A stretch of 64,000 bases of DNA from Alphaproteobacteria bacterium (lineage in GTDB: Bacteria; Pseudomonadota; Alphaproteobacteria; RF32; CAG-239). How positions within the stretch are numbered: position 1 is the stretch's first letter; the number at the start of each line of letters is the position of its first letter. This document shows positions 4,760-20,315 of the stretch, one piece after another. The stretch spans positions 16,174 to 80,173 of the forward strand of contig JAFUSA010000017.1 in NCBI GenBank assembly GCA_017480745.1, given 5' to 3'. The position numbers and the translations under genes are program-made. The notes beneath the pieces are model-generated. The model was given only the letters and a program-made list of their open reading frames with translations. It was not told where the DNA came from and did no database searches.

Positions 4760-4787
4760 ACTATACATAATATTCATTATGCGACAA
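4760..4787 (-). other. dif-like XerC/D recombination site (left prophage junction)
   Basis: Minus strand reads TTGTCGCATAA-TGAATA-TTATGTATAGT. 20 of 28 positions match E. coli dif GGTGCGCATAA-TGTATA-TTATGTTAAAT, including the inner CGCATAA / TTATGT half-sites. Confidence 0.6.
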
Positions 4788-4789
4788 AT
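4767..4789. repeat. Direct repeat, left copy (ATAATATTCATTATGCGACAAAT)
   Basis: Identical 23-mer at 13001-13023. Partial identity continues 3' (a GT dinucleotide and a further A match). Confidence 0.95.
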
Positions 4790-4964
4790 TGTAAACTCAC
4801 CCAATATATAAAATTATTGTATTTTAATAAGTTGCTCTATACTATCTAAGCTAATACTTTATTTTTTTAATTATTTTAATAATTCTTACGCAAAATAATT
4901 TTATTGCCTCTTCGCAATTTTTTATATACATATATAACAAAATAATTAAATAAGAGTTAATAAA

Positions 4965-5414
4965 ATGATTGATTATGAACAGATAAGTTATATAGAACAA
5001 TTGCTTTATAAAGCGTTGGATGATTTACAATATGCACTTGACGATTGCAATTTCAAAGAGATTTTGAATATGTCGCGAAAATATAAATACGAAAATAGTA
5101 TTTCATTGGATCACTACCTAACTGGACATAATAAAATGATGTGGAGACTATATACCTACCTTATCAATGGAATTCACACCGATGATGCTAAAAGAATGCT
5201 TTATCAGGAATTCCATCTTGAACCGATTATATGCACAAGGTTGGTTGATGACGTTTATGTCAGGCAACGCCGACAAATGATGCCAAATAAAATATACGCA
5301 GCGCACATGATGAAAAGAGCTGGTATAACAAATAAAAAAATCGCAACCGTCTTAGAAGTTTCATCATCTACGGTTGCTACATATTTAAAGGTTAATCTTA
5401 CAGTTAAAAATTAA
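4965..5414 (+). CDS. Prophage HTH DNA-binding protein (putative regulator)
   Basis: 149 aa. C-terminal helix-turn-helix KRAGITNKKIATVLEVSSSTVATYLK. It is the only plus-strand gene in the element. Confidence 0.55.
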   Translation: MIDYEQISYIEQLLYKALDDLQYALDDCNFKEILNMSRKYKYENSISLDHYLTGHNKMMWRLYTYLINGIHTDDAKRMLYQEFHLEPIICTRLVDDVYVRQRRQMMPNKIYAAHMMKRAGITNKKIATVLEVSSSTVATYLKVNLTVKN

Positions 5415-5779
5415 TTTTCACATATAGGTGTTAAATTGTATAAATCTCTTCGTGCTGGACGCCACCAATCCCATGAAAAATATTTTTCCGGAACATAAAA
5501 CAAATTAAATGGGTTTAATACCATAGGTGTATCAAATTCATAATCCGGATGCAAAATAGCAGTTTTACATCCTTTTTTACGCCCCTCTAATATTGTATTT
5601 TTAATTCCTTTATAAGGAAGCTTTGCTTGTGTATGATTTATGCCTTGAAGCTCATTATTCATGTATAAATCTGTATACTTTTCATAACTTAATAGTGTTA
5701 CAAGGTTTTTTGCGTCGTTTTCACTGTTGGCACATCCGAAAAGTGTTAAAACTGCCGCAATTAAATAAATTTTTTTCAT
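5411..5779 (-). CDS. Prophage-encoded lipoprotein (moron candidate)
   Basis: 122 aa. Lipobox MKKIYLIAAVLTLFGC. Own promoter-like TTGACT-17 nt-TACACT upstream at about 5812-5840. Confidence 0.6.
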   Translation of the reverse strand: MKKIYLIAAVLTLFGCANSENDAKNLVTLLSYEKYTDLYMNNELQGINHTQAKLPYKGIKNTILEGRKKGCKTAILHPDYEFDTPMVLNPFNLFYVPEKYFSWDWWRPARRDLYNLTPICEN

Positions 5780-5858
5780 ATTTATACACTCCTACAGAAA
5801 CTACTTCCAAGAGTGTATAAATATGTATTAAGAAAGTCAACACTAATTAATGACATTG

Positions 5859-6005
5859 TTAATCATTCCAGAAAGAATCCCAAAAAGAACGATGTTTTGC
5901 CTGTTTTTTGCCTCCTGTGCGCGTTGTTTTTCTTTTTGTAATAGTCTTTGTTTTACTAACTTTGCAACGCTTGGAAGCCGTTTTTCTTTTTCTATGTGTA
6001 GCCAT
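5859..6005 (-). CDS. 48-aa highly basic mini-protein (not in ORF track)
   Basis: Translated by hand: MATHRKRKTASKRCKVSKTKTITKRKTTRTGGKKQAKHRSFWDSFWND. SD is TAGGAGGGTAAT-ATG. Confidence 0.55.
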   Translation of the reverse strand: MATHRKRKTASKRCKVSKTKTITKRKTTRTGGKKQAKHRSFWDSFWND

Positions 6006-6006
6006 A

Positions 6007-6147
6007 TTACCCTCCTATCAATTTAATCAATTCAATCATAAAATCAGGCGCCGATAATGAACCGCCAACTAATCCGGCCAAAGCAGTTAAAACCCCTGCC
6101 CAAAACCCTTTATTTTTTACCTTTTCCTTTAATTCCGAAATATGCAT
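6007..6147 (-). CDS. 46-aa single-TM mini-protein (holin-like position)
   Basis: MHISELKEKVKNKGFWAGVLTALAGLVGGSLSAPDFMIELIKLIGG. SD is GGAGGGGAG. Its stop abuts the next gene's start. Confidence 0.5.
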   Translation of the reverse strand: MHISELKEKVKNKGFWAGVLTALAGLVGGSLSAPDFMIELIKLIGG

Positions 6148-6268
6148 CTATACTCCCCTCCAGCCGCGATAATCTTTCGTTCATATCCGATATTTTGCGC
6201 AGATACCATAACAGCACCACGAAAACAGGAGAATTTATCAACATTTGATTAAACAGCTCTTGTGTCAT
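6110..6268 (-). CDS. 52-aa single-TM mini-protein
   Basis: MTQELFNQMLINSPVFVVLLWYLRKISDMNERLSRLEGSIDAYFGIKGKGKK. Starts 4 nt after the upstream stop and overlaps the next mini-ORF in another frame. SD is weak. Confidence 0.4.
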   Translation of the reverse strand: MTQELFNQMLINSPVFVVLLWYLRKISDMNERLSRLEGSIDAYFGIKGKGKK

Positions 6269-6272
6269 ATCA

Positions 6273-6458
6273 TTATTTCTTTGTCAAAAGTTTGTAACCA
6301 AAGAATAAAGCCGCAGCCAATATAACATATTTACCGAAAGTTGCCTCCTTAGCGTCTTGCACTTCTTCTGCTTTGCTCTCTTTATACGAGTCAACTGCAT
6401 AATCTATTCCGATTGTTGCCAATATTGCACCGCCTAATTTTGCCAATGCTCCCCACAT
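6273..6458 (-). CDS. 61-aa two-TM mini-protein (holin-like)
   Basis: Internal start of the 100-aa track ORF: AAGGAGGTAAAA-ATG, MWGALAKLGGAILATIGIDYAV...VILAAALFFGYKLLTKK. Confidence 0.6.
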   Translation of the reverse strand: MWGALAKLGGAILATIGIDYAVDSYKESKAEEVQDAKEATFGKYVILAAALFFGYKLLTKK

Positions 6459-6468
6459 TTTTACCTCC

Positions 6469-6615
6469 TTACTTAAAAAATTTTTTATATACAAAATAGA
6501 TAATAATACCTTGCACGGCCGCGGCCGCCAAATTAAAAGCCGGCTGTGTGCTTTGCTTTTTATCCCAAATAGCAAAGCCTAACGCGCCGCCTAAAAAACT
6601 GACTAAATACCCCAT
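6469..6615 (-). CDS. 48-aa two-TM mini-protein
   Basis: MGYLVSFLGGALGFAIWDKKQSTQPAFNLAAAAVQGIIIYFVYKKFFK. SD is GTAGGAGATAATC-ATG. Directly downstream of the lysin. Confidence 0.55.
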   Translation of the reverse strand: MGYLVSFLGGALGFAIWDKKQSTQPAFNLAAAAVQGIIIYFVYKKFFK

Positions 6616-6624
6616 GATTATCTC

Positions 6625-7080
6625 CTACACATAAAAAACATGATTACCGATGGTTACAGTCTTTGTCATTGAAGCCGCCCAGTACGGCATAACAGATTTT
6701 GCATGATAATGTGTTGCCCCTCCGGTTATATCCTGTAATGTTCCGGCAATCGCTTGTTTAGCAATATTGAGCTCTGTTGCTAATTGTGCCGGAGTTGCCG
6801 CGATAATCTTTGCACGATTCGGATCATCCGTATTCCAACAGCTGAATTGATAAGGTTTTAAAACAACATCTTTTACACTAGCACCATACCATCCACCGGC
6901 TTTAACTCTATTCATTATCACATTTGCTACGGCCTGCATACCTTTTATTCCCTCGCCTCGTGCTTCGCCGTAAATTGTGCGTGCTAAATAATCTGCTTGG
7001 TCTTCCGTCATATCATATCCTTTTTTTAATAACCTATAACCTATATAAACTGCCCCTATTATTAAAAACGTTCTAAGCAT
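6625..7080 (-). CDS. Cell-wall hydrolase, SleB/Hydrolase_2 family, with N-terminal signal-anchor (endolysin)
   Basis: 151 aa. TM helix MLRTFLIIGAVYIGYRLL, then ARTIYGEARGEG...AVANVIMNRV...PYQFSCWN, typical of the SleB-type domain. Confidence 0.8.
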   Translation of the reverse strand: MLRTFLIIGAVYIGYRLLKKGYDMTEDQADYLARTIYGEARGEGIKGMQAVANVIMNRVKAGGWYGASVKDVVLKPYQFSCWNTDDPNRAKIIAATPAQLATELNIAKQAIAGTLQDITGGATHYHAKSVMPYWAASMTKTVTIGNHVFYV

Positions 7081-7083
7081 CGT

Positions 7084-7404
7084 TTAACCCTCTAATTCGT
7101 TAATCTCTGCCCGCCATCCTTGGCGTTTTGCAATAACATCAGCATATTGTTCAGCTGTTGCCGCACCCTCAGCGATTTTGATAATTGCATAATCTGTTTG
7201 TTGAAGTAATTTTTTTAACTCATTGATTCTGGATTGTTTAATTTTTTCTTCTATTGACCATGAATTTTTCACAACAGTGTAATATTCGCCTTGTTCTTCA
7301 ATATGATATTCCTGCCCATCATTACACCATTGGGCAACTTTGCTGTAATCCTCTTGTTTTTCCGATATATCTGTTTTTAATATTTTCCAATTGCTGTATG
7401 TCAT
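7084..7404 (-). CDS. 106-aa protein, possible fibre/spike assembly chaperone
   Basis: Start chosen at MTYSNWKIL (SD GGAGAAAATA). The C-terminal pattern ...AEQYADVIAKRQGWRAEINELE resembles tail-fibre assembly proteins. The position after the spike gene fits that role. Confidence 0.35.
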   Translation of the reverse strand: MTYSNWKILKTDISEKQEDYSKVAQWCNDGQEYHIEEQGEYYTVVKNSWSIEEKIKQSRINELKKLLQQTDYAIIKIAEGAATAEQYADVIAKRQGWRAEINELEG

Positions 7405-7415
7405 TATTTTCTCCA

Positions 7416-8015
7416 TCAGTAACCAATAGATATCCAATATCCGCCACCCTCACCGTAATTAGTAAGAGTAAACGAAGTTGTTGTTATTCCATTTATTGCG
7501 TCATTGTCATTCGTTCCGGAAGCGTTGTTGCGTGTAAATGTTACCACGCATCCGGTGGTAAATGGCATATGAAAATTATAAGTTCCACTTCCAGGAACTA
7601 ATCCCCATTGAATAATTATACCGTTACTCAATTTCATATAACCATATTGTCCAGTAACAGATGTTCCATTATTAGTTATGGGATAACCTAATCCTCCCTC
7701 CCCTCTAATTTGCGCCACACCTGTCGCATTATTAATTAACATTCCAATGGCATTGGTATTATATGATCCGTGCGGGTCATTTATGCTTGTTGGTAAAAAA
7801 TAAGTGTTATCACCATCATTTCTAATAAGAAAACCATATTTATTATATGAATCTATTGCTCTAAATTGAGCTGGGTTTTGAGCATTTGCTTGTACACTTA
7901 ATTCAGAATCAGTAAAAAATGTTTGATGTGTACTTGGTGTAAAAGTTTTTTGTCCATTAATCACTTGATTCCCAACCGTTCTGACTGAATTTATACCTCG
8001 CCCGACAAATCCCAT
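7416..8015 (-). CDS. Receptor-binding spike/fibre-like protein
   Basis: 199 aa. The motif GYMKLSNGIIIQWG...FHMPF is recurrent in the C-terminal knobs of phage fibre/spike proteins. SD is AGGAG. Confidence 0.55.
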   Translation of the reverse strand: MGFVGRGINSVRTVGNQVINGQKTFTPSTHQTFFTDSELSVQANAQNPAQFRAIDSYNKYGFLIRNDGDNTYFLPTSINDPHGSYNTNAIGMLINNATGVAQIRGEGGLGYPITNNGTSVTGQYGYMKLSNGIIIQWGLVPGSGTYNFHMPFTTGCVVTFTRNNASGTNDNDAINGITTTSFTLTNYGEGGGYWISIGY

Positions 8016-8027
8016 AATATCTTACTC

Positions 8028-8651
8028 CTAATAACCAATTGTGTAATTGTATGTACCGGCTGCTGTCACACTTATTTTTGATGGTAATGCAAGCGAACAA
8101 CTCCATGCTGCTCCCTCTGGCAATGTTAAACTACTGACTGCATAACTTTCACCAGATATATCAATCGTTACACTCCCTGCTGTAACCATTATATTAAAAT
8201 CGCATCCTCCAACATCGAAAAACTGACTTACAGAAGATACACCACCAACAAGATTATTTAATCTCACAGATTGCACGGGTAAAATTGAAGCAGCAGTCAC
8301 TGGTAAAGTTGAGGCTGCTGCAACATTTACAATACCTGAAACAGTTAATCGTGAATCTTTTATATCGCCGACACCGACAACAAAATGAGCAGTTATTTCA
8401 GAGTTGCTATCATTCCATAATTCTATAAATTCAACTGGTTCGGTTAACCTGTAACCTAAACCTGGTGTAAATGGTGTTTGAATCATTGTTCCACCAAAAG
8501 ATACTTTTAACGCATTTGGCTCAGAAACATCCAGAAGATGAAATGAATCCGTTACATAATCCAATTTAAAATGTTCGTTTTCTTTTAATGTTTTTGTGTA
8601 TTCCCAATACGGCGCTTGAGTCGAACCTAAATTAATTGTTTGTGCTACCAT
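8028..8651 (-). CDS. Virion structural protein (vertex/penton candidate)
   Basis: 207 aa, beta-rich, no TM. Ends ...YTIGY like the downstream spike, which ends ...ISIGY. Confidence 0.35.
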   Translation of the reverse strand: MVAQTINLGSTQAPYWEYTKTLKENEHFKLDYVTDSFHLLDVSEPNALKVSFGGTMIQTPFTPGLGYRLTEPVEFIELWNDSNSEITAHFVVGVGDIKDSRLTVSGIVNVAAASTLPVTAASILPVQSVRLNNLVGGVSSVSQFFDVGGCDFNIMVTAGSVTIDISGESYAVSSLTLPEGAAWSCSLALPSKISVTAAGTYNYTIGY

Positions 8652-9130
8652 TTTTTACCCCTAAAAATAAAATAAAAGATTGCCGCAATCATTGCATACA
8701 TTGCAATTGGTCTTATACCGTCAATTGTTCGCCGTAATTCGTCGTCACTTTCGGCATATGCCTGTGCGGTCGTATCCATTGCTTTTTCGGCTGAACTTTG
8801 AACACTTGAAACGGCTTTATCAAAAGTTTGCGACAATAACGATGAACTTTTATTGTAAAGCGTTTCTGCTGTTCCTAAAGCATCATAATTAAGTTTTCGT
8901 GCGGTTGTCATTGCATCTGAACTCAAAGTATTTACAGTCCCCAACAAGCTGTTTAAATTATCTCCGGTTATACCTTGCTCATTATATACAAGTGAACTGC
9001 CTGCGCCCAAAATCGTGTTGTCATGAGCAAGTGCACCAATTTCTGCGGCGTTGTTAATATCGGTTGAATTGTCTGTATATTGAGTTGTTGTGGAACTCGA
9101 TGATTTTGAATGTGAACTAAATAAACCCAT
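8645..9130 (-). CDS. Membrane-anchored virion protein (C-terminal TM)
   Basis: 161 aa. S/T-rich N-terminus, helical middle, C-terminal helix IAMYAMIAAIFYFIF. Confidence 0.4.
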   Translation of the reverse strand: MGLFSSHSKSSSSTTTQYTDNSTDINNAAEIGALAHDNTILGAGSSLVYNEQGITGDNLNSLLGTVNTLSSDAMTTARKLNYDALGTAETLYNKSSSLLSQTFDKAVSSVQSSAEKAMDTTAQAYAESDDELRRTIDGIRPIAMYAMIAAIFYFIFRGKKW

Positions 9131-9131
9131 T

Positions 9132-9401
9132 TTAACCTCTAACCTTACGAATCAACCAAAAACCCAAAAGAGCAACGCCTCCCCAAAGCAAAACCTGTTT
9201 AATAGATAAACTCGATGCACCACCCATGTTAAGTGTGTTGTTATGCACTCCCCAATCACGGCTAGACATACTCGATGCAGCACTTGAAGTTGCTGCTCCA
9301 AAATTATTCAAAAAATCATCAAGACCAATACTTGCTTCAATTTCCCCAATATATCCGCCTGTGTTTTGATTATTATCTTGGTTGCTTTGGTTTGATGCCA
9401 T
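9132..9401 (-). CDS. Small virion membrane protein (C-terminal TM)
   Basis: 89 aa. C-terminal helix LLWGGVALLGFWLI. Confidence 0.4.
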   Translation of the reverse strand: MASNQSNQDNNQNTGGYIGEIEASIGLDDFLNNFGAATSSAASSMSSRDWGVHNNTLNMGGASSLSIKQVLLWGGVALLGFWLIRKVRG

Positions 9402-9404
9402 AAC

Positions 9405-9656
9405 CTACCGCCTTTTCAGAACTGCCACTAGTAAAACCGTAATAATTGCCCCACCAGCAATCCATAACAGTGTTTTTTTATGCAAATCATACCCCAAAAA
9501 AGATAATGTTTCATCTTGCTGTTGTTGAGCCATTTCCAAAGCAGCCTGATTTGCTGACATGGTTACCTTTGAATTGAGTTTTGCTACATATAATCCGCCA
9601 GCAGTATTCGCTAACCATTGCCACCACCTTGTAGAATCTCCTGCATTATCTGCCAT
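9405..9656 (-). CDS. Small virion membrane protein (C-terminal TM)
   Basis: 83 aa. C-terminal helix LLWIAGGAIITVLLVAVL. SD is AAAGGGG. Confidence 0.4.
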   Translation of the reverse strand: MADNAGDSTRWWQWLANTAGGLYVAKLNSKVTMSANQAALEMAQQQQDETLSFLGYDLHKKTLLWIAGGAIITVLLVAVLKRR

Positions 9657-9671
9657 TGTTTACCCCTTTCA

Positions 9672-9700
9672 TGTAAAAGCAAGGCGGCGCACCGCCCTGC
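9672..9700 (-). terminator. GC-rich hairpin + U-run after the capsid candidate gene
   Basis: Minus-strand RNA GCAGGGCGG-UGCG-CCGCCUUGC followed by UUUUA. It stands out in AT-rich DNA. Confidence 0.55.
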
Positions 9701-9714
9701 CCGCTTTATAAACA

Positions 9715-10578
9715 CTATGCTGAAACTGCTTTTAACATAACTTCCGGCACGTTGCGAATAGATACAGCAATCAAGTCATATACACCGCTTGTCGGAGCTG
9801 TACCGAATGTCGTTTTTAAGCGTAATTCGGTTACACCCATCATTGGCAAAACACCTTTGATGCTACCATCGCTGAACGAATAATTAAAATTGCCTGAAAC
9901 AGCTGATAAACCGCGTGCATTAACAATATAATCATTAAGCGCTTGTGAAATCGGATCATAGATACTATTACCGTTTACGACACATTCTCCGCCGGTAATT
10001 GCCCCACCACCATTGTGTGCCAAGATTTCTAAGTACGCTTCGTTATTGTCTCGCGGTAATGTGTCAACTGTTGAAATACCAGTTGATGCCATTGTTTGCG
10101 GATAGTTGATTATTTTGATATATGAACCAAGTGCTTGCGCAGTTGAACGTCTAACAGTTGAAACCTGCAAATCCGTCAAACCGGTAACCGTTGAATTGCA
10201 ATAAACCTGTAATTGAATTGTTTGAATATTCGAACAGCCCCAAGCGAAAAAGTCTTCATTATTTGAATCCTTGAATAAATATCTTCCAATATTCAAACCC
10301 AAGCAATTTACAACATTTTGTGTAACTTCGACACCCAAAGATGAATAAACATCACACAAACGCGTGAATGGTACATTTATCACTTGTTCTCCGTTGATAT
10401 TTAATGCAACTTTACCAATACCGGATTTGATATTTGTCAAAGTTGCAGCCGCACCGCTATTAGTAAATTCCAATACTACGTCATCAATTGTGTCAAATGA
10501 TGGAATATTAAAGGTTAAAATTATACCCGCGGAAATCGGTTTACTTTCATGAACTAAAACTTTTTTTAATTGTGACAT
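9715..10578 (-). CDS. Major capsid protein candidate (jelly-roll type suspected)
   Basis: 287 aa, beta-rich, no TM. Lies immediately downstream of the ATPase module and upstream of the membrane mini-proteins, and is followed by a strong hairpin. The size is comparable to the PM2 capsid protein as I recall it. Confidence 0.5.
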   Translation of the reverse strand: MSQLKKVLVHESKPISAGIILTFNIPSFDTIDDVVLEFTNSGAAATLTNIKSGIGKVALNINGEQVINVPFTRLCDVYSSLGVEVTQNVVNCLGLNIGRYLFKDSNNEDFFAWGCSNIQTIQLQVYCNSTVTGLTDLQVSTVRRSTAQALGSYIKIINYPQTMASTGISTVDTLPRDNNEAYLEILAHNGGGAITGGECVVNGNSIYDPISQALNDYIVNARGLSAVSGNFNYSFSDGSIKGVLPMMGVTELRLKTTFGTAPTSGVYDLIAVSIRNVPEVMLKAVSA

Positions 10579-10590
10579 AGTACCCCCCTA

Positions 10591-10680
10591 TTAATCATTC
10601 TTGGATGTTGCTTGTCTGATGTATTGATATACATAAATTCCGGCCACCACTCCGGCCATAATTTTTAATAGGCTTTTCAT
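10591..10680 (-). CDS. 29-aa TM peptide (not in ORF track)
   Basis: MKSLLKIMAGVVAGIYVYQYIRQATSKND. SD is GGGAGAAG. Confidence 0.35.
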   Translation of the reverse strand: MKSLLKIMAGVVAGIYVYQYIRQATSKND

Positions 10681-10795
10681 TGTCTTCTCCCTGCTATAAA
10701 AAATAAAACCTACGTAAACATTACATAGGCTTTATTTTGTGTGCAAATGCGGCTTTTTCTACATATATATGTATATATATGTTATGTAAAAAATT

Positions 10796-11428
10796 TCATG
10801 CAACTATTCCTTGTTCATTTTTGTAATAATATTTATAGTTTTGCAGGTTCAGGATACCTCCTTTATATGGTGTACCTAACATTGAGATTGCTGTTTTAAC
10901 ATCATTCCAATCAGCTAAGCGAAAAATATATAAATCCGATAAATTTGCACGAAAAGGCATATCAACCAAGCTCATACGCTGTGAGACGCCGATAAGGTTA
11001 ACGCCGTAATGCCTGCCTTGGTTGCATAAAAAGCCGAATCCGTTATCAGGCTTTTTACGTGTTAAACCAAGAGGAAAACTCAGATTTAATTCATCAACAA
11101 AAAGCGTTATTTTTGCATTGTGTTGCTGAATTTTAAATCCTGTTTGTAACTCTCTTATAAATTTACTTAAATCTGATAAAGCTTTTATTTCTGAGCCATA
11201 CGGCGGTACATATGCTACTCGAAAACCTTTAACATAATTTTTGATTAAATAACTTTTCAAATCATCAAGAGATGTAAAACGGCGAAATTTACCAACAAAA
11301 TCATCCAGCGCATCAAAAACAATTAAACGTTGACATTTTGCAACCAATGTTAATGCTTTAGTTGTTTTACCGCTTCCGGATGCCCCAAAAATTCCAACCC
11401 GCCGACTATCTGTTATCTGTTTTTTCAT
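10796..11428 (-). CDS. P-loop ATPase, candidate genome-packaging ATPase (FtsK-HerA/A32-like or Zot-like N-domain)
   Basis: 210 aa from ATG 11428 (SD AAGGTG). Walker A GASGSGKTT, Walker B TLFVDE, later GRHYGVNLIGVSQR. No TM segment. Confidence 0.6.
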   Translation of the reverse strand: MKKQITDSRRVGIFGASGSGKTTKALTLVAKCQRLIVFDALDDFVGKFRRFTSLDDLKSYLIKNYVKGFRVAYVPPYGSEIKALSDLSKFIRELQTGFKIQQHNAKITLFVDELNLSFPLGLTRKKPDNGFGFLCNQGRHYGVNLIGVSQRMSLVDMPFRANLSDLYIFRLADWNDVKTAISMLGTPYKGGILNLQNYKYYYKNEQGIVA

Positions 11429-11942
11429 CTTTTTCACCTTTGCCAAAAAATTTACTCATAAAGCTATTTTCTTTTACTTGCTCACTGGATTTTTTCATAA
11501 ATTTGTGAACATATCCGCTTAATCCATTACCAGTAAAGCGTTTGCATGCAATATTTGCTTTGGCACCGACAAAACAAGAGATTGCAATCATATCACCAAA
11601 CCAACCGCCGCATGGCTCGATTAAGAAATGCATCATTTTGTATTTTTGGGCCATCATATACAGCTTGGCAGCTGATACTTTCGCACCTGCAAATTCAAAC
11701 GGTTTATCTTTTTGCACCTTAAAATCGGGCATATCCCATAAATCGCTGCATATATCAAATAATTCAATAAAATGCTGTTCAAATTGTTCTGGTGTTAAAA
11801 TGCCGACAGGATCCTGTGCGTTTTTTTGTTCTTCTTCCATTTTGGCTGCTATTACTGATTTTTCAATATTTTCTGCAAATTCTGCCGCTTGTTTGCTTGT
11901 CATATTTGCTCCATCATCTAAAATTACATTTTCTTCTGACAT
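11406..11942 (-). CDS. Prophage protein of unknown function
   Basis: 178 aa from ATG 11942. Acidic N-terminus and a cysteine-containing hydrophobic core. Overlaps the ATPase start. Confidence 0.4.
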   Translation of the reverse strand: MSEENVILDDGANMTSKQAAEFAENIEKSVIAAKMEEEQKNAQDPVGILTPEQFEQHFIELFDICSDLWDMPDFKVQKDKPFEFAGAKVSAAKLYMMAQKYKMMHFLIEPCGGWFGDMIAISCFVGAKANIACKRFTGNGLSGYVHKFMKKSSEQVKENSFMSKFFGKGEKDEKTDNR

Positions 11943-11963
11943 ATTTTTACCTTTCAAAAAAAA

Positions 11964-12236
11964 TTAAATATCTAAATCTTCTTCAAGATCATCACGTTTG
12001 CACGGTTGATTTATTTGCAAATTATCCTTAACTGCGCTAATTATACCGACTTTTTCCAAACATACGGCATGGCCGCGACGTAAAGTGGCTAAAGCAATCC
12101 GACTATATTTGCTATTTAATTGCCATTTACATCCATTATCGCAATAGCAATAAATCTTATTATTTTTGTTGACTTTCACATCTTGAAATTGTTCACCACA
12201 CACTGGACATGTTGCTCGCCCCACAATTTCCCCCAT
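11964..12236 (-). CDS. Zinc-ribbon protein
   Basis: 90 aa. CPVCGEQ...CYCDNGC. SD is AGGAGG. Confidence 0.5.
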   Translation of the reverse strand: MGEIVGRATCPVCGEQFQDVKVNKNNKIYCYCDNGCKWQLNSKYSRIALATLRRGHAVCLEKVGIISAVKDNLQINQPCKRDDLEEDLDI

Positions 12237-12247
12237 TTTATAACCTC

Positions 12248-12931
12248 CTAAAATTGTATATTAACTTCATTTAACCCATGTGTATTATAGTCATATGCTA
12301 TAATTTCACGATTGCACTTATCATTAAAGAAATTTTTAATTTCCGCCTCTGTAATAGCATCACGCATTGAAGCCGATAGTGGCCGAAAGCCTAAACACCC
12401 CCTTCCAGTCTTAAAAAAATTATAATTTTTTGCTTGCTTTACTGCCTCGTAACATGAAAGAATATCGTTTACATCCATCATGTCTACAACAGGCGCTACT
12501 TTGTTATTTGTTTGGCTATTCGCGCGCACACGTGCGCGCTGTTTTATAAAATTTAAATTTATATTTTTGTTTAAATGATTATTGTTCGATATGCCATCCG
12601 TGTCACTATGTAGTGACTCTGATGGCGCATTCCCCTGTGACAAATTTGCCACAGGGGAATCAGGTTCTAATCTCAAATAATAACCGTTTGACGAATAACC
12701 TCCATCATCACGTAAACGTTTTTCACGAGCTATAACACGACAAGCCTCTAATTTGGATAAACTGCGAAAAACGCTACGTCTACTGATACCACACTCATCT
12801 GCTATGCGAGAAACAGATGGAAAACAAAACCCATCTTCGTTTGCGAATCCTTGTATTGATAAATAAACTCTTATATCAACACTGCTTAAATCCTTATTTT
12901 TATAAACTTTTTTTGGACAAATTGAAAACAT
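12248..12931 (-). CDS. Winged-HTH replication-initiator-like protein
   Basis: 227 aa. N-terminal wHTH ...VYLSIQGFANEDGFCFPSVSRIADECGISRRSVFRSLSKLEACRVI resembles DnaD/plasmid Rep-type initiators. First gene of the leftward operon. Confidence 0.5.
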   Translation of the reverse strand: MFSICPKKVYKNKDLSSVDIRVYLSIQGFANEDGFCFPSVSRIADECGISRRSVFRSLSKLEACRVIAREKRLRDDGGYSSNGYYLRLEPDSPVANLSQGNAPSESLHSDTDGISNNNHLNKNINLNFIKQRARVRANSQTNNKVAPVVDMMDVNDILSCYEAVKQAKNYNFFKTGRGCLGFRPLSASMRDAITEAEIKNFFNDKCNREIIAYDYNTHGLNEVNIQF

Positions 12932-12993
12932 AGATACCCCCTTTTCAGGTGAGTATTTACGGATTTATTTATCTGATATTTTCCTTATTTTGT

Positions 12994-13021
12994 GGATAAT
13001 ATAATATTCATTATGCGACAA
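12994..13021 (-). other. Second dif-like site (right prophage junction), outer arm differs
   Basis: Minus strand reads TTGTCGCATAA-TGAATA-TTATATTATCC. The XerC-like arm and centre are the same as at 4760-4787. The XerD-like arm is different. Confidence 0.55.
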
Positions 13022-13023
13022 AT
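13001..13023. repeat. Direct repeat, right copy
   Basis: Identical to 4767-4789. Confidence 0.95.
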
Positions 13024-13417
13024 AGTGAGATACGCGTTTTAAGTCTTTTTATACAAAATTATGGCTATCTATTCTTCCGGTTCTATTTAGCTTATATTCT
13101 TCTGGTGCCGGTGCTGATATAGAAGCACCGGCAGAAACATTATAATTATTTGTATTTGATGAAAAATTGACAATCTCCATTGCAATCACAAGCAGTTGTT
13201 GCTTTATCAATCGGCATCGGAACGGAAATATTTTTACCGTTAGGACATGCAATAGATTGTCCTGTATCTGTGCTACCATCGCATCCAACAATGCCTTTTT
13301 TCTTGCCGATAATTCCTAAATATAAAACAAAAAAAGCTTTTTATAGTAGTAAAAAGCAATAATACAAAACACCCGATTTTTCAACCGAGTGTTTCTGTTC
13401 AACTATTATGAATTTAA

Positions 13418-15527: not shown

Positions 15528-16658
15528 TTATGCTATAAATGATTTGATAAAACGCGGATTTTTACCTAAACGTGACAATAATTCATAACTTATGGTTCCG
15601 GCATCACGCGCCACATCATCCAAAGTATATTCATCAAACACAAAATGGGCAAAATCCCCTACTTCAACACCTTTAACGTCTGTGACATCACAAATTATGT
15701 TATCCATAGAAACACGGCCGATTATCCGAGCCTCGCACCAACGTGAAGACGATTTGAAAAATGCCTTCCCTACATTAGAAAGTGAGCGTGGTAAACCATC
15801 TCCGTAACCGATTGATATTATCGCTATTTTTCTATTTGTTCCCGCACGATAGGTTGCCGAATAACCTACAAAATCTCCTTTGGGTAGATCTGCAACTTGC
15901 AAAACAGGAGCTTTTAAGGTTATTATATTTTGCATTTGATTAGGGCGATACGGAGCAGTATTTATTCCATACATTGCTGCTCCCAAACGCACCATATCAC
16001 AACAAAAATCTTTTCCTAAAAATGCACCGTCGGAAGCCGAAAGTGAAGCCGGTAAATCAGGAAAATATTTTTTCCTTATATTTTTGAAAGTGTTTAATTG
16101 TTTTTCATTCATAAAGTGGTCTTTTTCATCAGCACACGCTAAATGACTCATTACAAGAGAAAAATTACGGCAATCTTTTGTGCTTAAACGCTGTAAATCG
16201 CTTTCACGAAAACCTAAACGATTAAGCCCTGTTTCAACGTGAATAACCGGACGAATCCCTTCTATCTGATGTTTTTTCCAAAAATGCCACATTTCCGGCG
16301 AAATGATTACCGGCACAAACTTATATTTTTGAAACAAGGATAAACTATCCGCCCCTATTCCCTGCAAAACAAATATACGCGCATCGGGAACAGATTTTAC
16401 TATTTTTTCTCCCTCTACGGCATGAGCAACCCAAAAATTACGACAATCAGCTTGTTCGTAAAGAGTTTTTGCCACCTTCTCGGCTCCCAAACCGTATGCG
16501 TCATCTTTCACCACAGCCGAAGGCATGGCAGGATCTATGATTTTTTCTAACAATTTATAATTGGCGACCAACCGTTTCAGACTGATTTCCATCACCGGTT
16601 GTGTAAAAATTTTGTTATCTGCTCTTGTAAAAATATTCATAACTGTTATTATCTCCAT
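15528..16658 (-). CDS. alr: Alanine racemase
   Basis: 376 aa. PLP-lysine region AVVKDDAYGLGAEKVAKTL. C-terminal ...GTISYELLSRLGKN. Confidence 0.8.
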   Translation of the reverse strand: MEIITVMNIFTRADNKIFTQPVMEISLKRLVANYKLLEKIIDPAMPSAVVKDDAYGLGAEKVAKTLYEQADCRNFWVAHAVEGEKIVKSVPDARIFVLQGIGADSLSLFQKYKFVPVIISPEMWHFWKKHQIEGIRPVIHVETGLNRLGFRESDLQRLSTKDCRNFSLVMSHLACADEKDHFMNEKQLNTFKNIRKKYFPDLPASLSASDGAFLGKDFCCDMVRLGAAMYGINTAPYRPNQMQNIITLKAPVLQVADLPKGDFVGYSATYRAGTNRKIAIISIGYGDGLPRSLSNVGKAFFKSSSRWCEARIIGRVSMDNIICDVTDVKGVEVGDFAHFVFDEYTLDDVARDAGTISYELLSRLGKNPRFIKSFIA

Positions 16659-16676
16659 AGCAAAGGATTAAAAAAA

Positions 16677-17417
16677 TTGTATTACTGCGATTCGCATATT
16701 CATTTTCAGGACTATAAATCACAAGACGTTAAAAATGTGATAAGTTCCGCCATACAAAATAAAGTTGAATTATTTATAAATGCGTCATCTCACCCTTCTG
16801 ATTGGGGTAAAATATCTGCACTTACTACAAAATATCCGCAAATTATACCGGCATACGGTGTGCATCCTTGGTATATTAACGAAGTAAAAGCAAAATGGGC
16901 TGAAATTTTGGAACTTACTTTACAGCAAAATCCAGCTGCTTTGGTAGGCGAATGCGGAATTGACAGAAACAAAAATTCAGACATCAGTGCGCAAATAGAT
17001 ATATTGCAAACACACATAAATTTGGCAAATAAATACCAACGCCCGTTAATTTTACATGCCGTAAAGGCCAACGAACAGTTTGCAGCATTATTTTCAGTTT
17101 TACCGAAACGCACGATTTTTCATTCTTTTACAGGTTCGCTTGAATGGGGACGTGAAATACAAAAACGCGGATTTTTCATAGGGCTCAATTTTTCTATTTT
17201 ACGTAAAAAAAATGTAAAAGAGATAATTAAATCATTGAATTTGCATCAAATATTGTTAGAAACTGACGGACCTTATCAAAATATTATTCCACATACGGAA
17301 ACTTTGCCGCAAAATTTACCGGATTTAGCAAACAAAATAGCAGTTGCGGCAGACATAAATTTGCAAGATTTTCAGCAGATTTTATTTGCGAATAAACAAC
17401 AATTTTTAGGAGTATAA
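16677..17417 (+). CDS. TatD-family metal-dependent hydrolase
   Basis: YYCDSHIHF motif at the N-terminus. The start is probably TTG 16677 (SD AAAGGA), because the longer track ORF overlaps the alr start. Confidence 0.7.
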   Translation: MYYCDSHIHFQDYKSQDVKNVISSAIQNKVELFINASSHPSDWGKISALTTKYPQIIPAYGVHPWYINEVKAKWAEILELTLQQNPAALVGECGIDRNKNSDISAQIDILQTHINLANKYQRPLILHAVKANEQFAALFSVLPKRTIFHSFTGSLEWGREIQKRGFFIGLNFSILRKKNVKEIIKSLNLHQILLETDGPYQNIIPHTETLPQNLPDLANKIAVAADINLQDFQQILFANKQQFLGV

Positions 17418-17418
17418 T

Positions 17419-18633
17419 ATGACACAAAACGCACCAAAATCTCTTCGTCTACACATAGCTTTGTTAGGACGAGTTAATACAGGAAAGTCCAGCTTTTTGA
17501 ATTTAGTCAGCGGACAACAGGCTGCAATTACTTCAGATATTGCCGGAACCACAACCGATGTGGTGGAAAAAGCGCAAGAGTTACCGCCACTTGGACCGGT
17601 TTTGTGGTTGGATACCGCCGGATTTGGTGATGTAAGCGAACTTTCGGAAAAACGTTTGGCCAAAACGCAACAAATATTAGATAAAACCGATGTTGCGTTA
17701 TTGATATGCGCCGGAGATCGTATAGGAGCCGAAGAGGAAAAAATTATGGCTTTGACGACAGAGCGAAAAATACCTCTGCTGAAAATATATAATCAGTCCG
17801 ATAAATTTCCAATTACTGCCACAGACGGTATAATAGTTAATTCTACCGATTTAGCCACACGTGATAAAGTTTTATATGAGCTTAAAAGTGCCTTAATAAA
17901 AATATGTCCGGAAAACTTTATAAATCCCTTGCCCTTACTGGGTGATTTAGCCCCGCAAAACAGCACGGTTATGATGATTATTCCGATAGATTACGAAGCC
18001 CCGAAAGGTCGCTTGATTATGCCTCAGGTACAAGCCATTCGCGACTGTTTAGACCATCAGCAAAATATAATGTTAGTCAAAGAAAATAATTATGTGGAGG
18101 CTTTGCAAAATCTACGTAATCCTCCGGCATTAGTAGTGTGTGATTCACAAGTAGTTGATAAAATGGTGTCGCAAACTCCCGACAATATTCTGTGCACAAC
18201 TTTTTCCATTTTAATGGCCCGTTTTAAGGGGGATTTAAGTATTATGGTTCAAGGTGCTGCCATAATAGATAAATTGCAAGACGGCGACAAGGTGTTGATT
18301 GCCGAAGCTTGCACACACCATGCCATGGAAGATGATATAGGACGAGTAAAAATACCTAATTGGCTACGCAAAAAAACAGGTAAGGATTTGATAATTGAAC
18401 ACCTGAGCGGTTGTGATTTTGCTACTGATTTAACAAAATATAAATTGGTTGTGCAATGCGGCGGTTGCACGCTAAATCGCCGCGAGATTTTATCACGTAT
18501 TTATAAATGTCGGCAAGCCGGAGTCGCTATAACTAACTACGGGGTTTGTATTTCTGAGCTTAAAGGCGTTCTATCTCGTGTGTTGCAGCCTTTTGGTGAT
18601 GTATATCAAGACTACATTAAGGCAAAAGAATAA
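17419..18633 (+). CDS. hydF: [FeFe]-hydrogenase maturation GTPase HydF-like
   Basis: 404 aa. G1 GRVNTGKSS, G3 DTAG. C-terminal cluster motif EACTHH...QCGGC. Confidence 0.65.
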   Translation: MTQNAPKSLRLHIALLGRVNTGKSSFLNLVSGQQAAITSDIAGTTTDVVEKAQELPPLGPVLWLDTAGFGDVSELSEKRLAKTQQILDKTDVALLICAGDRIGAEEEKIMALTTERKIPLLKIYNQSDKFPITATDGIIVNSTDLATRDKVLYELKSALIKICPENFINPLPLLGDLAPQNSTVMMIIPIDYEAPKGRLIMPQVQAIRDCLDHQQNIMLVKENNYVEALQNLRNPPALVVCDSQVVDKMVSQTPDNILCTTFSILMARFKGDLSIMVQGAAIIDKLQDGDKVLIAEACTHHAMEDDIGRVKIPNWLRKKTGKDLIIEHLSGCDFATDLTKYKLVVQCGGCTLNRREILSRIYKCRQAGVAITNYGVCISELKGVLSRVLQPFGDVYQDYIKAKE

Positions 18634-18706
18634 AAACATCGAAAAATATTTACCTCAATCTTTAATTAAAAAAATTGCGCCAAGAATCGCCGTTATCTAT
18701 CAAAAA

Positions 18707-18738
18707 CAAAGCGCTTTTCATATAAGAAAAGCGCTTTG
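18707..18738. terminator. Bidirectional hairpin between hydF and nfeD
   Basis: CAAAGCGCTTTT-loop-AAAAGCGCTTTG. Confidence 0.6.
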
Positions 18739-18758
18739 TCAGACATAATGAATATAAT

Positions 18759-19202
18759 TTATTCAATCAGCAAAATAAGACTGTCTTTAACTCCTACTAC
18801 CTTTGCGGTATCACCTTTTTTCAAAGTTTTTTCCGTATAGGCAACCCAATAAGAATCGCCAACTTTAACTTTTGTCTGATTATCGACAACATCTTCGGCC
18901 AAAGTTACCAAACGACCAACATTTTGCTCTGCCGAATTGTTAAGATTTTGATATTCTTTCGGCGTTTTTGTTTTTTCAAATATATAGCGATACACATATA
19001 ATCCGATAACCGCAAATATACCCGAAAATATGGCAAACCATATCAGTTGAGTAGTAACTTCCATAGGAATAAGCCATGTTATCAAACTCATAACAAAGCC
19101 GGCAAAACCAAACCAAATCAAGTAAACTCCCGGCACAACCAATTCTAAAACCGACAGCACTAACCCGATAATCAGCCACATTATAACCGGTGAATCAAAC
19201 AT
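18759..19202 (-). CDS. NfeD-family membrane protein
   Basis: 147 aa. Three to four TM helices plus a C-terminal OB-like domain. Immediately downstream of the SPFH gene. Confidence 0.75.
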   Translation of the reverse strand: MFDSPVIMWLIIGLVLSVLELVVPGVYLIWFGFAGFVMSLITWLIPMEVTTQLIWFAIFSGIFAVIGLYVYRYIFEKTKTPKEYQNLNNSAEQNVGRLVTLAEDVVDNQTKVKVGDSYWVAYTEKTLKKGDTAKVVGVKDSLILLIE

Positions 19203-19204
19203 TT

Positions 19205-20137
19205 TTATTTCTCCTTAGTTGATTTTTTACCGGAAATTTGCAATGTATCCTTAACCAATTCTGAAATTCCGGCAACAGTTCCCATAACTTGGGTTGTATC
19301 AACCGGTAACATAAGTAATTTTTCGTTTGGTGAAGTTACAATGCCTTGCAGGGCGTCAATATATTTTTGTCCCAAAAAGTAAGACAAAGCTTGTGGATTT
19401 CCGTTGGCGATTGCTTCGGATACCATTTGTGTAGCAGCGGCTTCGGCCTTAGCAGAGCGTTCACGTGCTTCGGCTTCGCGGAAAGCTGCCTCTTTTTGAC
19501 CTTCGGCTTCCAAAATAACTGCTTGTTTTTCACCTTCGGCTTTCAAAATCTCGGCCTGACGCAAACCTTCGGCCTCTAAAATATTTGCACGTTTATCACG
19601 TTCGGCTTTCATTTGACGTGCCATAGAATCAATCAAATCTGCTGGCGGAGTAATATCTTTAATTTCCACACGTGTAACTTTAACACCCCACGGAATTGTC
19701 GCAACATCAACTACATCCAACAATTTTTGGTTAATAACATTACGTTGCGACAACAGCTCATCAATTTCCATACTACCGATAACTGTTCTGATGTTGGTCA
19801 TAACCAAGTTCATAATAGCATAATCAAGGTTATCTACCTGATAAGCTGCTTTAACCGCATCTTGAATTTGATAAAACAGCACACCGTTAACGGTAACCAT
19901 GGCGTTATCTTTGGTAATAACTTCTTGTGAGGCAACCTCTAAAACTTGCTCTTTGCGATTTATGCGGGCACCTATGGATTCAAAAACCGGTATTAAAATA
20001 TGAAATCCCGGATCCAACTTACGGGTATATTTACCGAAATTTTCTACCGTATATTCATACCCTTGGCGCACAATAACTGCTGAGCGCAGAATGATTACCG
20101 CAACCAAAATCAAAAGAATTACTGCAATTGCTTCCAT
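19205..20137 (-). CDS. SPFH/band-7 (stomatin/paraslipin-like) protein
   Basis: 310 aa from ATG 20137. N-terminal TM, SPFH core, and an E/A-rich coiled-coil repeat EAEGLRQAEILKAEGEKQAVILEAEG. Confidence 0.85.
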   Translation of the reverse strand: MEAIAVILLILVAVIILRSAVIVRQGYEYTVENFGKYTRKLDPGFHILIPVFESIGARINRKEQVLEVASQEVITKDNAMVTVNGVLFYQIQDAVKAAYQVDNLDYAIMNLVMTNIRTVIGSMEIDELLSQRNVINQKLLDVVDVATIPWGVKVTRVEIKDITPPADLIDSMARQMKAERDKRANILEAEGLRQAEILKAEGEKQAVILEAEGQKEAAFREAEARERSAKAEAAATQMVSEAIANGNPQALSYFLGQKYIDALQGIVTSPNEKLLMLPVDTTQVMGTVAGISELVKDTLQISGKKSTKEK

Positions 20138-20315
20138 TTTGACTTTCCTTTCATAATTTGTTCGTGATTTTAACAGAGTTAATAATACACATTTTAGCGA
20201 AATAATCAAGGAAAAAATGTATTTAAGTATAAAAAAACATATGTTAGACGCTTTTCTTGATACAAAAAAATTTCCCTCTGTAAGCTCTTATGCTTACGGA
20301 GGGAAAATACTTACA

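Follow-up and report, generated by a model that had tools for sequence, protein, structure and literature searches.

The 64,000-nt stretch of DNA analysed here (hereafter the window) comes from contig JAFUSA010000017.1 (positions 16,174 to 80,173) of assembly GCA_017480745.1, which is assigned to an Alphaproteobacteria bacterium of GTDB lineage RF32; CAG-239. Close to its left end lies a prophage of 8,234 bp (4767..13000, minus strand) that carries the genes of a tailless virus with a double-jelly-roll (DJR) capsid protein and is flanked by two copies of a short repeat, which we identify as the chromosomal dif site of the host. The virus group to which this element belongs has been known since 2022 (PMC9502842), and what is added here is a base-precise attachment site at chromosomal dif.

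The prophage and its attachment sites

The flanking repeats (4767-4792 and 13001-13026) are identical at 25 of their 26 positions, share an identical core of 23 nt (4767-4789 and 13001-13023) and are spaced 8,234 bp from start to start. The borders of the prophage were drawn from this spacing and from the breakpoints at unoccupied sites described below, and its length counts the 23-nt crossover core once, together with the unique sequence. Between the repeats are about 20 close-packed open reading frames (ORFs), all but one of them on the minus strand, and gene callers run on independent contigs of the same element returned the identical gene set. The G+C content is about 35-41% within the element and 28-35% immediately to its left. 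Pfam and PHROG scans found no integrase, transposase, large terminase, portal or tail/tail-tube domain in any of the ORFs, nor any relaxase, secretin or type IV secretion system (T4SS) gene. A preliminary description of this DNA, made without database searches, had reported about 20 tightly packed genes between two repeats and the lack of integrase, terminase, portal and tail genes; our ORF set agrees with it in number, sizes and order, and the scans bear out the absences. The repeats that it had noted are real, but their identity as dif had gone unrecognised. Two other readings of the element were tried and rejected: that of an inovirus, as there is no Zot with a transmembrane segment and no pI or pIV, and that of a microvirus.

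Read on the coding strand (4787->4760 and 13021->12994), both sites are organised 11-6-11, with a XerC arm and a XerD arm on either side of a central hexamer. The site at one end, attR (4760..4787, minus strand), is a complete 28-bp dif, TTGTCGCATAA TGAATA TTATGTATAGT, identical to the unoccupied host site. At the other end, attL (12994..13021, minus strand) is a hybrid, TTGTCGCATAA TGAATA TTATATTATCC, in which the XerC arm and hexamer of dif are joined to a degenerate, phage-derived XerD arm (7/11). The XerC arm matches the published dif sites of Bartonella quintana and Agrobacterium at 10 and 9 of 11 positions, respectively.

Using the neighbouring rplL protein as a query, we retrieved six contigs from the same species in which the element is absent (L023, L026, L027, L028, L030 and L032). 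Each has a single site, ...gcgtatctcactat TTGTCGCATAA TGAATA TTATGTATAGT tttaatcatc..., in which the right flank of the window is joined to the left flank through one complete 28-bp site. The blastn alignments of these contigs to the window flanks (98.2-99.6% identity) break exactly at 4789 and 13001, with an overlap of 23 nt. The crossover therefore lies inside the site, and there is no target-site duplication of the transposase type. In the empty-site contig L023, the cumulative GC skew peaks at the site (+0.139 upstream, -0.152 downstream), and the same switch is seen in the window; a skew apex is the criterion of Carnoy and Roten for dif. Taking the arms, the empty sites and the skew together, the flanking repeat is the chromosomal dif of the host and lies at the skew-defined terminus of this host species. 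Insertion at host dif explains the missing integrase. The predicted attP of the element reads ...GAGTTTACAAT-TTGTCGCATAATGAATA-TTATATTATCCACAAAAT...; with its full identity over the central region and its degenerate XerD arm, we take it to resemble the type found in TLCphi and the gonococcal genetic island.

Virion, lysis and replication genes

The major capsid protein (287 aa; 9715..10578, minus strand) was identified through Pfam, profile searches and structure prediction. Its AlphaFold2 model, built from an alignment of 29 sequences, has a local confidence score (pLDDT) of 91.1 and a predicted template modelling (TM) score, pTM, of 0.90. In a Foldseek search of the PDB with this model, the coat protein P2 of phage PM2 (2vvf_A) ranks first (E-value of 2.7e-18, TM-scores of 0.77/0.82), followed by the double-jelly-roll capsid proteins of Sulfolobus turreted icosahedral virus (STIV), Paramecium bursaria chlorella virus 1 (PBCV-1), an iridovirus and PRD1/PR772. 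By sequence the signal is fainter: Pfam P2_C, which represents the C-terminal part of the PM2 coat protein, scores 24.9 bits at a cut-off of 25, and the best PDB matches are 9t9v_A (E-value of 0.029), which on checking is the capsid protein of Vibrio phage NO16, and PM2 P2 (profile E-value of 0.071). The capsid protein has more than 215 close homologues, among them proteins from gut metagenome-assembled genomes (MAGs) labelled Alphaproteobacteria bacterium, 'Azospirillum sp. 47_25' and 'Acetobacter sp.', and a profile search of 1.84 billion representative proteins returned 241 families. A tblastn search of 50,697 GenBank phage records with the capsid protein gave no match, and a scan of IMG/VR found no relative of the element.

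Just upstream of the capsid gene lies the gene for the packaging ATPase (210 aa; 10796..11428, minus strand), a homologue of PM2 P9 of the FtsK/HerA-A32 type. It matches Pox_A32 (2.5e-4), phrog_2666 (1.7e-16) and HerA, and a profile of its orthologues compared by hhalign matches PM2 P9 with a probability of 95.7% and the NO16 ATPase and P9 of Rhodobacter phage Jorvik with 98.3% each. The same profile showed no match to conjugation or partition ATPases. Its sole tblastn match among the 50,697 phage records is the ATPase of NO16 (27% identity, E-value of 4e-6), and links to cultured phages at the tblastn level run only via this protein. The preliminary description had proposed that the 287-aa and 210-aa proteins be compared with the capsid proteins and ATPases of PM2 and its kin, and both comparisons came out in its favour: the capsid model is a double jelly roll with PM2 P2 as its best PDB match, and for the 210-aa protein the matches are to packaging ATPases, those of PM2, NO16 and Jorvik. 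It had also named three findings that would speak against such a virus, namely a capsid candidate without a jelly-roll fold, an ATPase of the conjugation or partition kind and homologous elements with tail, portal or terminase genes, and none of these was encountered.

Directly after the stop codon of the capsid gene is a G+C-rich hairpin with an 11-bp stem followed by UUUU (9677..9702, minus strand). The strong hairpin that had been pointed out here is real and has equivalents in relatives: in L001, L003, L006, L008, L015 and L037 its position is kept, its sequence not. It is probably a terminator or attenuator; put more broadly, a terminator, attenuator or mRNA-stabilising element that sets the dosage of capsid protein is likely.

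Two adjacent genes may encode the vertex of the particle. The candidate penton base (207 aa; 8028..8651, minus strand) is modelled with a pLDDT of 79 as two beta-sandwich domains (residues 15-93 and 134-206) on either side of a low-confidence, flexible linker. Against the PDB, this model finds generic double beta-barrel proteins and the A223 turret/penton protein of STIV, with TM-scores that are low because of the flexible linker. Its best two full-length matches among predicted viral structures (7e-9 and 6e-8; 187-201 aa) belong to Vibrio phages 1.249.B and 1.057.O, which are Autolykiviridae of the order Vinavirales. The top match of its profile is NO16 GP14, although weakly so (E-value of 0.035 among 31 proteins), and no similarity was found to PM2 P1 or Jorvik P1 by sequence profiles or, for PM2 P1, by fold. 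The neighbouring protein (199 aa; 7416..8015, minus strand) has the trimerisation domain and C-terminal knob of a fibre or spike, with matches to Pfam Gp34_trimer (6e-9) and Gp53-like_C (6e-8) and to PHROG tail-fibre families; the latter Pfam domain substantiates the receptor-binding knob that had been seen in one of the beta-rich proteins. In a cryo-electron microscopy study of NO16 (2026), the penton base GP14 has two jelly rolls, one proximal and one distal, connected by a flexible link, and the trimeric spike GP13 is encoded beside it. The 207-aa and 199-aa proteins share layout and gene order with this pair, and we infer, for the former from its model, that they may be a penton base and a trimeric fibre.

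Three small proteins (83, 89 and 161 aa; 8645..9656, minus strand), each with a C-terminal hydrophobic helix, occupy the slots of PM2 P3, P8 and P10/gp j. They have weak profile matches only, each to its positional counterpart, and are presumed to be virion membrane proteins. Transmembrane helices had been proposed for these and several other small products. Those of the 83-, 161-, 48- and 46-aa proteins alone pass a strict hydropathy filter; the remaining ones fail it and are visibly hydrophobic, rich in Gly and Ala.

The presumed lysis genes follow on the same strand. A SleB-type cell-wall hydrolase with a hydrophobic N-terminus (151 aa; 6625..7080, minus strand) matches Pfam Hydrolase_2 (1.3e-26) and a PHROG endolysin family (1e-28), in line with the SleB-type lysin of the preliminary description. 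The chaperone-like protein that it had placed next to this gene (106 aa; 7084..7404, minus strand) found no support, as this ORF has no significant family match in the Pfam and PHROG searches. Beyond the hydrolase gene are five mini-proteins (48, 61, 52, 46 and 48 aa; 5859..6615, minus strand) in the slot of PM2 P6/P17/P18, four of them hydrophobic and one very basic (17 K+R of 48). The 52-aa protein matches PM2 gp k weakly, the sole hint among the five, which are presumed to be lysis and membrane factors. Next comes a 122-aa protein (5411..5779, minus strand) whose sequence has a lipoprotein-type signal (LTLFGC); its sole match is to the signal-peptide part of the Cor-like phrog_1119.

The early genes lie at the opposite end of the prophage. 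The replication initiator (227 aa; 12248..12931, minus strand) has an N-terminal winged helix-turn-helix (HTH) domain of the DnaD or lambda O-like kind; it matches Pfam HTH_36 (1.1e-12), PHROG replication-initiation families down to 1e-17 and, weakly, the Jorvik replicase. Inside this rep gene, adjoining an A+T-rich tract, is a perfect G+C-rich dyad, GCGCGCACACGTGCGCGC (12522..12539). A dyad occurs at the equivalent place in 10 relatives (L001, L003, L005-L008, L015, L038, L035 and L037), where the sequences differ and the symmetry is preserved; two of these (L035 and L037) have another rep. We regard the dyad as a candidate replication origin. Its location within an O-like rep gene recalls phage lambda, the ori of which lies within gene O.

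Downstream of rep is the gene for a Zn-ribbon protein (90 aa; 11964..12236, minus strand), the counterpart by profile and position of the PM2 transcription factor P14 (hmmsearch 9.2e-7, hhalign 77%; 9e-6 to NO16 gp23). The 178-aa protein that follows (11406..11942, minus strand) is assigned by position only to the slot of PM2 ORF h/PRD1 P10, a membrane-vesicle assembly factor: hhalign against PM2 gp h was negative, and there is a weak match to Jorvik gp06 (hmmsearch 0.0094). An ORF_h upstream of the ATPase gene was described, by HHpred, by Yutin et al. 2022 (PMC9502842), as was the P7 slot between the ATPase and capsid genes. In the present element this slot is filled by a 29-aa hydrophobic peptide (10591..10680, minus strand), whose sequence similarity to the 34-aa PM2 P7 is not significant.

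The sole divergent gene (4965..5414, plus strand) lies at the prophage end beside attR and encodes a 149-aa regulator with a C-terminal HTH, for which there are weak HTH matches only and no catalytic domain. In size and position it fits as the counterpart of TR_Z1 (141 alignment columns), the regulator of the clade A gut viruses described by Yutin et al. 2022 (PMC9502842). TR_Z1 is a double HTH according to the HHpred searches of those authors, and matches HTH_Tnp_IS630 and paired-box HTH domains. The 149-aa protein showed no similarity to PM2 gp a, gp c or P15, to NO16 gp06 or gp07, or to Jorvik gp01 or gp07, and the XafT/DUF3653 domain was not detected in the ORFs of the element. A homology of the 149-aa protein to P15/XafT was considered and dropped, as it has no sequence support; the two are analogous in position only.

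Relatives and host context

We then asked how general the arrangement is. Five relatives with 62-84% capsid identity and unrelated host flanks (L005, L006, L007, L008 and L015) each contain a pair of sites, spaced 7.9-8.3 kb and oriented like the capsid gene. In each of them the XerD arm is degenerate in the copy on the rep side and reads TTATGTATAGT or TTATGTATACT in the far copy. The two copies of a pair share their central hexamer, which varies between hosts (TGTCTA, TATATA, TCTATA); the exception is L007, whose copies differ by one base (TATATG versus TATATA).

Four relatives of 8.3-8.5 kb are circular by terminal overlap, namely L003, L004 (141 nt), L037 and L038 (30 nt). In three of these circles (L003, L004 and L038; 8.3-8.4 kb), just one dif-like attP lies between rep and the divergent regulator gene; its XerC arm is perfect and its XerD arm degenerate. 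Circles occur among relatives with 85-88% capsid identity. The contig L021 (8,294 bp, identical capsid protein) is no circle but a prophage fragment bounded by the two dif copies, with a short host flank.

The relatives also include other arrangements. L035 and L037, at about 81-83% capsid identity, have another replication and early module and an extra divergent 134-aa gene, and L037 is still circular. L009 has two phage-type dif-like sites (7052 and 14989) that are 7,937 bp apart and followed by identical sequence, which suggests a tandem prophage array or an assembled attP junction. At 58-62% capsid identity, the dif-type site is oriented opposite to the structural genes in L011 (15172), L014 (7415) and L012 (4444). 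The site of L012 has a degenerate XerC arm (7/11) and a perfect XerD arm, and thus represents a 'right-armed' variant. L004, L005, L011 and L012 were binned in MAGs labelled Acutalibacteraceae, Bacteroidaceae, Lactobacillales and Elusimicrobium. These odd labels are probably binning errors for small, circular or prophage-bearing contigs, and they call for caution, as 8-kb circles get binned into unrelated MAGs. Insertion at dif also accounts for assemblies that break up at these loci into contigs of about 8 kb, and a search for the dif motif gives exact prophage borders where standard prophage finders cut badly.

The host genes around the site vary in their own right. A pilin-like gene with a PilS domain (221 aa) lies beside dif in L023 (10797-11462) and in L026-L028. 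About 800 bp of it are missing in the window (13049-13291, minus strand), L030 and L032, where an ORF of 76-80 aa remains. This loss shows that the terminus-proximal locus is variable independently of the prophage. The host flank (window 15528-20209, and the flanks of L019 and L023) encodes HydF, an [FeFe]-hydrogenase maturation protein, which fits an anaerobic lifestyle. Unusually for these genes, the rplJ-rplL pair immediately adjoins the terminus dif.

Life cycle, rival explanations and known systems

Most likely, the element is an integrative mobile element exploiting Xer (IMEX) that would use the XerCD recombinases of its host; the same has been proposed for the phages Jorvik and NO16 and for those of the dif type in Vibrio. 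For the reading as a whole, an intact temperate virus of the order Vinavirales that integrates at dif via host XerC/XerD, we estimate a probability of about 80%. Members of this order are tailless and icosahedral, with an internal membrane and a PM2-like double-jelly-roll capsid. The genome of such a virus would be a circle of about 8.2 kb, replicated by the DnaD/O-like initiator, possibly from the dyad within the initiator's own gene. The P9-type FtsK/HerA ATPase would package it into a capsid of trimers of the 287-aa protein, which would surround a vesicle studded with the small membrane proteins and carry the two-domain penton (207 aa) and trimeric fibre (199 aa) at its vertices. Release would depend on the SleB-type hydrolase and the small membrane proteins. 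The attP, located between the divergent 149-aa regulator gene and rep, would copy the XerC arm and hexamer of dif and have a degenerate XerD arm. Host XerC/XerD would recombine it with chromosomal dif at the replication terminus, with the exchange within the 23 nt of identity. A complete dif would thereby be restored on the regulator side, so that chromosome dimer resolution is preserved, and the rep side would be left with a hybrid site whose poor XerD arm probably damps excision.

Several points weigh against this reading. The dependence on XerC/XerD is deduced from sequence alone, and the internal membrane and double-stranded genome are assumed by analogy with the family. Neither xerC nor xerD was found among the nine window ORFs of roughly the right size; these genes normally lie elsewhere in the genome. 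In L006-L008, the GC skew keeps its sign along the 5-7 kb flanks, so that placement at the terminus is shown only for this host species. L035 and L037 have no dif-like attP and a different early module, and may be non-integrating or use another mechanism. All ten contigs with an identical flanking ABC-transporter protein carry the prophage, which implies that the prophage may for the most part lie quiescent. The junction of the excised circle, searched for as an exact pattern, gave 0 matches in JGI metagenome contigs, a result that is uninformative there because most of the relatives stem from ENA and Logan.

The carriage by ten of ten contigs and the lack of an excised junction in the JGI contigs would also suit a decayed or domesticated prophage remnant that forms no particles and is fixed at dif, as would the small number of free-virus contigs in the gut (Yutin et al. 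2022, PMC9502842). We nevertheless hold such a remnant to be improbable. The genes of the conserved set are all intact and agree in length with those of the circular relatives, and relatives at 85-88% capsid identity do occur as circles. Moreover, the locus is polymorphic for the presence of the element among contigs of one species that are 98.2-99.6% identical, and the strains with a clean empty site point to recent gain or loss. We think it most likely that the element is a working temperate virus that is seldom induced, in agreement with the 2022 survey (PMC9502842).

Slightly less credible again is the idea that the element was integrated by an unrecognised enzyme of its own, either the rep protein or the 149-aa double-HTH, IS630-HTH-like protein, and that the likeness to dif is incidental. 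It draws on the IS630-type DDE transposase carried by the HGV-2 relatives (PMC9502842), on the HTH_Tnp_IS630 and paired-box matches of TR_Z1, and on the attB of Jorvik, which is not at the terminus (PMC10589892). However, the 149-aa protein is HTH only, without a catalytic domain, and the target has a full XerC arm, 6-bp spacer and XerD arm, is kept across unrelated flanks and stands at the skew apex. The position of the crossover within the site, with no transposase-type duplication of the target, likewise speaks against this idea. As for a non-viral integrative plasmid or conjugative element, in which the ATPase would serve DNA transfer or partition, the weak Pfam matches of the ATPase to TrwB_AAD_bind and Zot are outweighed by the double-jelly-roll capsid protein with PM2 P2 as its best structural match, by the matches of the ATPase to three Vinavirales packaging ATPases (95.7-98.3%) and by the absence of relaxase, secretin and T4SS genes from the scans. 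We give this explanation next to no credence, and a conjugative element in particular was rejected as contradicted by the capsid fold and the ATPase profile matches.

The virus so described can be set beside several known systems. With Pseudoalteromonas phage PM2 (Corticoviridae), it shares the capsid fold, the P9 ATPase and the P14 factor, as well as a collinear gene order (in PM2: rep, P13/P14, gp h, P9, P7, P2, P3, P4, P8, gp j, P1, P5, P6, gp k, gp l), which for the small proteins is a matter of position and hydrophobicity, their sequence homology being not significant. PM2 differs in its 10 kb genome and marine gammaproteobacterial host, and in its rolling-circle Rep (P12), LytD-type lysin P5, one-piece P1 spike and P15/P16 regulators, for none of which profile comparisons detected a homologue in the element. 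The preliminary description was thus right about a PM2-like tailless virus with a double jelly roll; strictly speaking it does not count as a corticovirus, since it is without a P5-type lysin and a P15 regulator. In its mode of insertion, the element resembles the filamentous IMEXs CTXphi, VGJphi and TLCphi and the gonococcal genetic island, which use host dif as attB without a recombinase of their own and restore one dif. Tandem arrays are possible in the filamentous IMEXs, as they may be in L009. The virion type and genes of the filamentous IMEXs and the gonococcal island are unrelated to those found here.

A double-jelly-roll virion and insertion at dif come together in NO16 (Asemoviridae) and the Vibrio 'dif-type' prophages (PMC9966536, PMC12715192, PMC13552765), which are integrase-less IMEXs at dif whose attP separates the early genes from a terminal regulator gene. 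The vertex of NO16 has a two-domain penton and an adjacent trimeric spike, the layout proposed here for the 207-aa and 199-aa proteins, and its capsid protein is the best sequence-level PDB match. These phages differ in their marine gammaproteobacterial hosts, their lysin and their lysogeny module of P16/RstR and P15/XafT, which is not detectable in the present element. Integration by XerCD at dif has been proposed for NO16 and Jorvik and was formalised in Vibrio under the name 'dif-type DJR phages'. Rhodobacter phage Jorvik (Mestraviridae, PMC10589892) has an alphaproteobacterial host, a circular genome of 8.8 kb, no integrase, dif-like attP and attB sites for which XerCD was proposed, a homologous ATPase (hhalign 98.3%) and a weakly similar replicase. 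It differs in its inverted packaging module, in its lysins (M15 peptidase and Slt, not SleB) and in its 328-aa capsid protein, which is barely detectable by profile. The attB of Jorvik lies in the RuBisCO operon, with a location reported to be variable, whereas the site described here is at a skew-defined terminus.

The closest match is found in the gut. From 23,119 human gut metagenomes, Yutin et al. 2022 (PMC9502842) recovered 176 Vinavirales contigs, of which 142 were prophages, mostly of Alphaproteobacteria. Their groups HGV-1 to HGV-3 form clade A, for which they proposed the family name Mestraviridae; the family was ratified by the international virus-taxonomy committee, ICTV, in 2025, with Jorvik and YY as exemplars. 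The hallmarks of clade A are a SleB hydrolase at the P5 position, a fibre gene and the TR_Z1 regulator at the P15 locus (PMC9502842). By gene content and order, the element in the window belongs to this type. It has the gut alphaproteobacterial host, the genome of about 8 kb and the lack of an integrase, and its genes run in the same order from rep (DnaD-like winged HTH), P14-like, ORF_h, ATPase, P7 and capsid through P3/P8/P10-like, candidate spike/penton, fibre, SleB hydrolase and presumed small lysis proteins to the putative TR_Z1 counterpart. The preliminary description had expected such an element to be new in an AT-rich, anaerobic alphaproteobacterium, which does not hold, as the group was catalogued in 2022 (PMC9502842) and relatives of Jorvik are abundant in Alphaproteobacteria (PMC10589892).

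There is no substantive difference from clade A in gene content; what is shown here in addition is that the attachment site is dif. Yutin et al. 2022 called the mechanism of integration unclear (PMC9502842), and insertion at dif fills the gap that their survey had left open. We lean towards extending this to the clade as a whole, with the HGV groups being true IMEXs at the terminus dif that have a 'left-armed' attP (XerC arm and matching hexamer, degenerate XerD arm), and with the clade-specific TR_Z1, encoded beside attP, as a non-homologous functional analogue of the Xer-activation factor XafT/P15. If so, dif-type lysogeny would not be confined to marine Vibrio phages but would include the main group of varidnaviruses in the mammalian gut. 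Insertion at dif in any case aligns this gut group with Jorvik, NO16 and the Vibrio dif-type phages.

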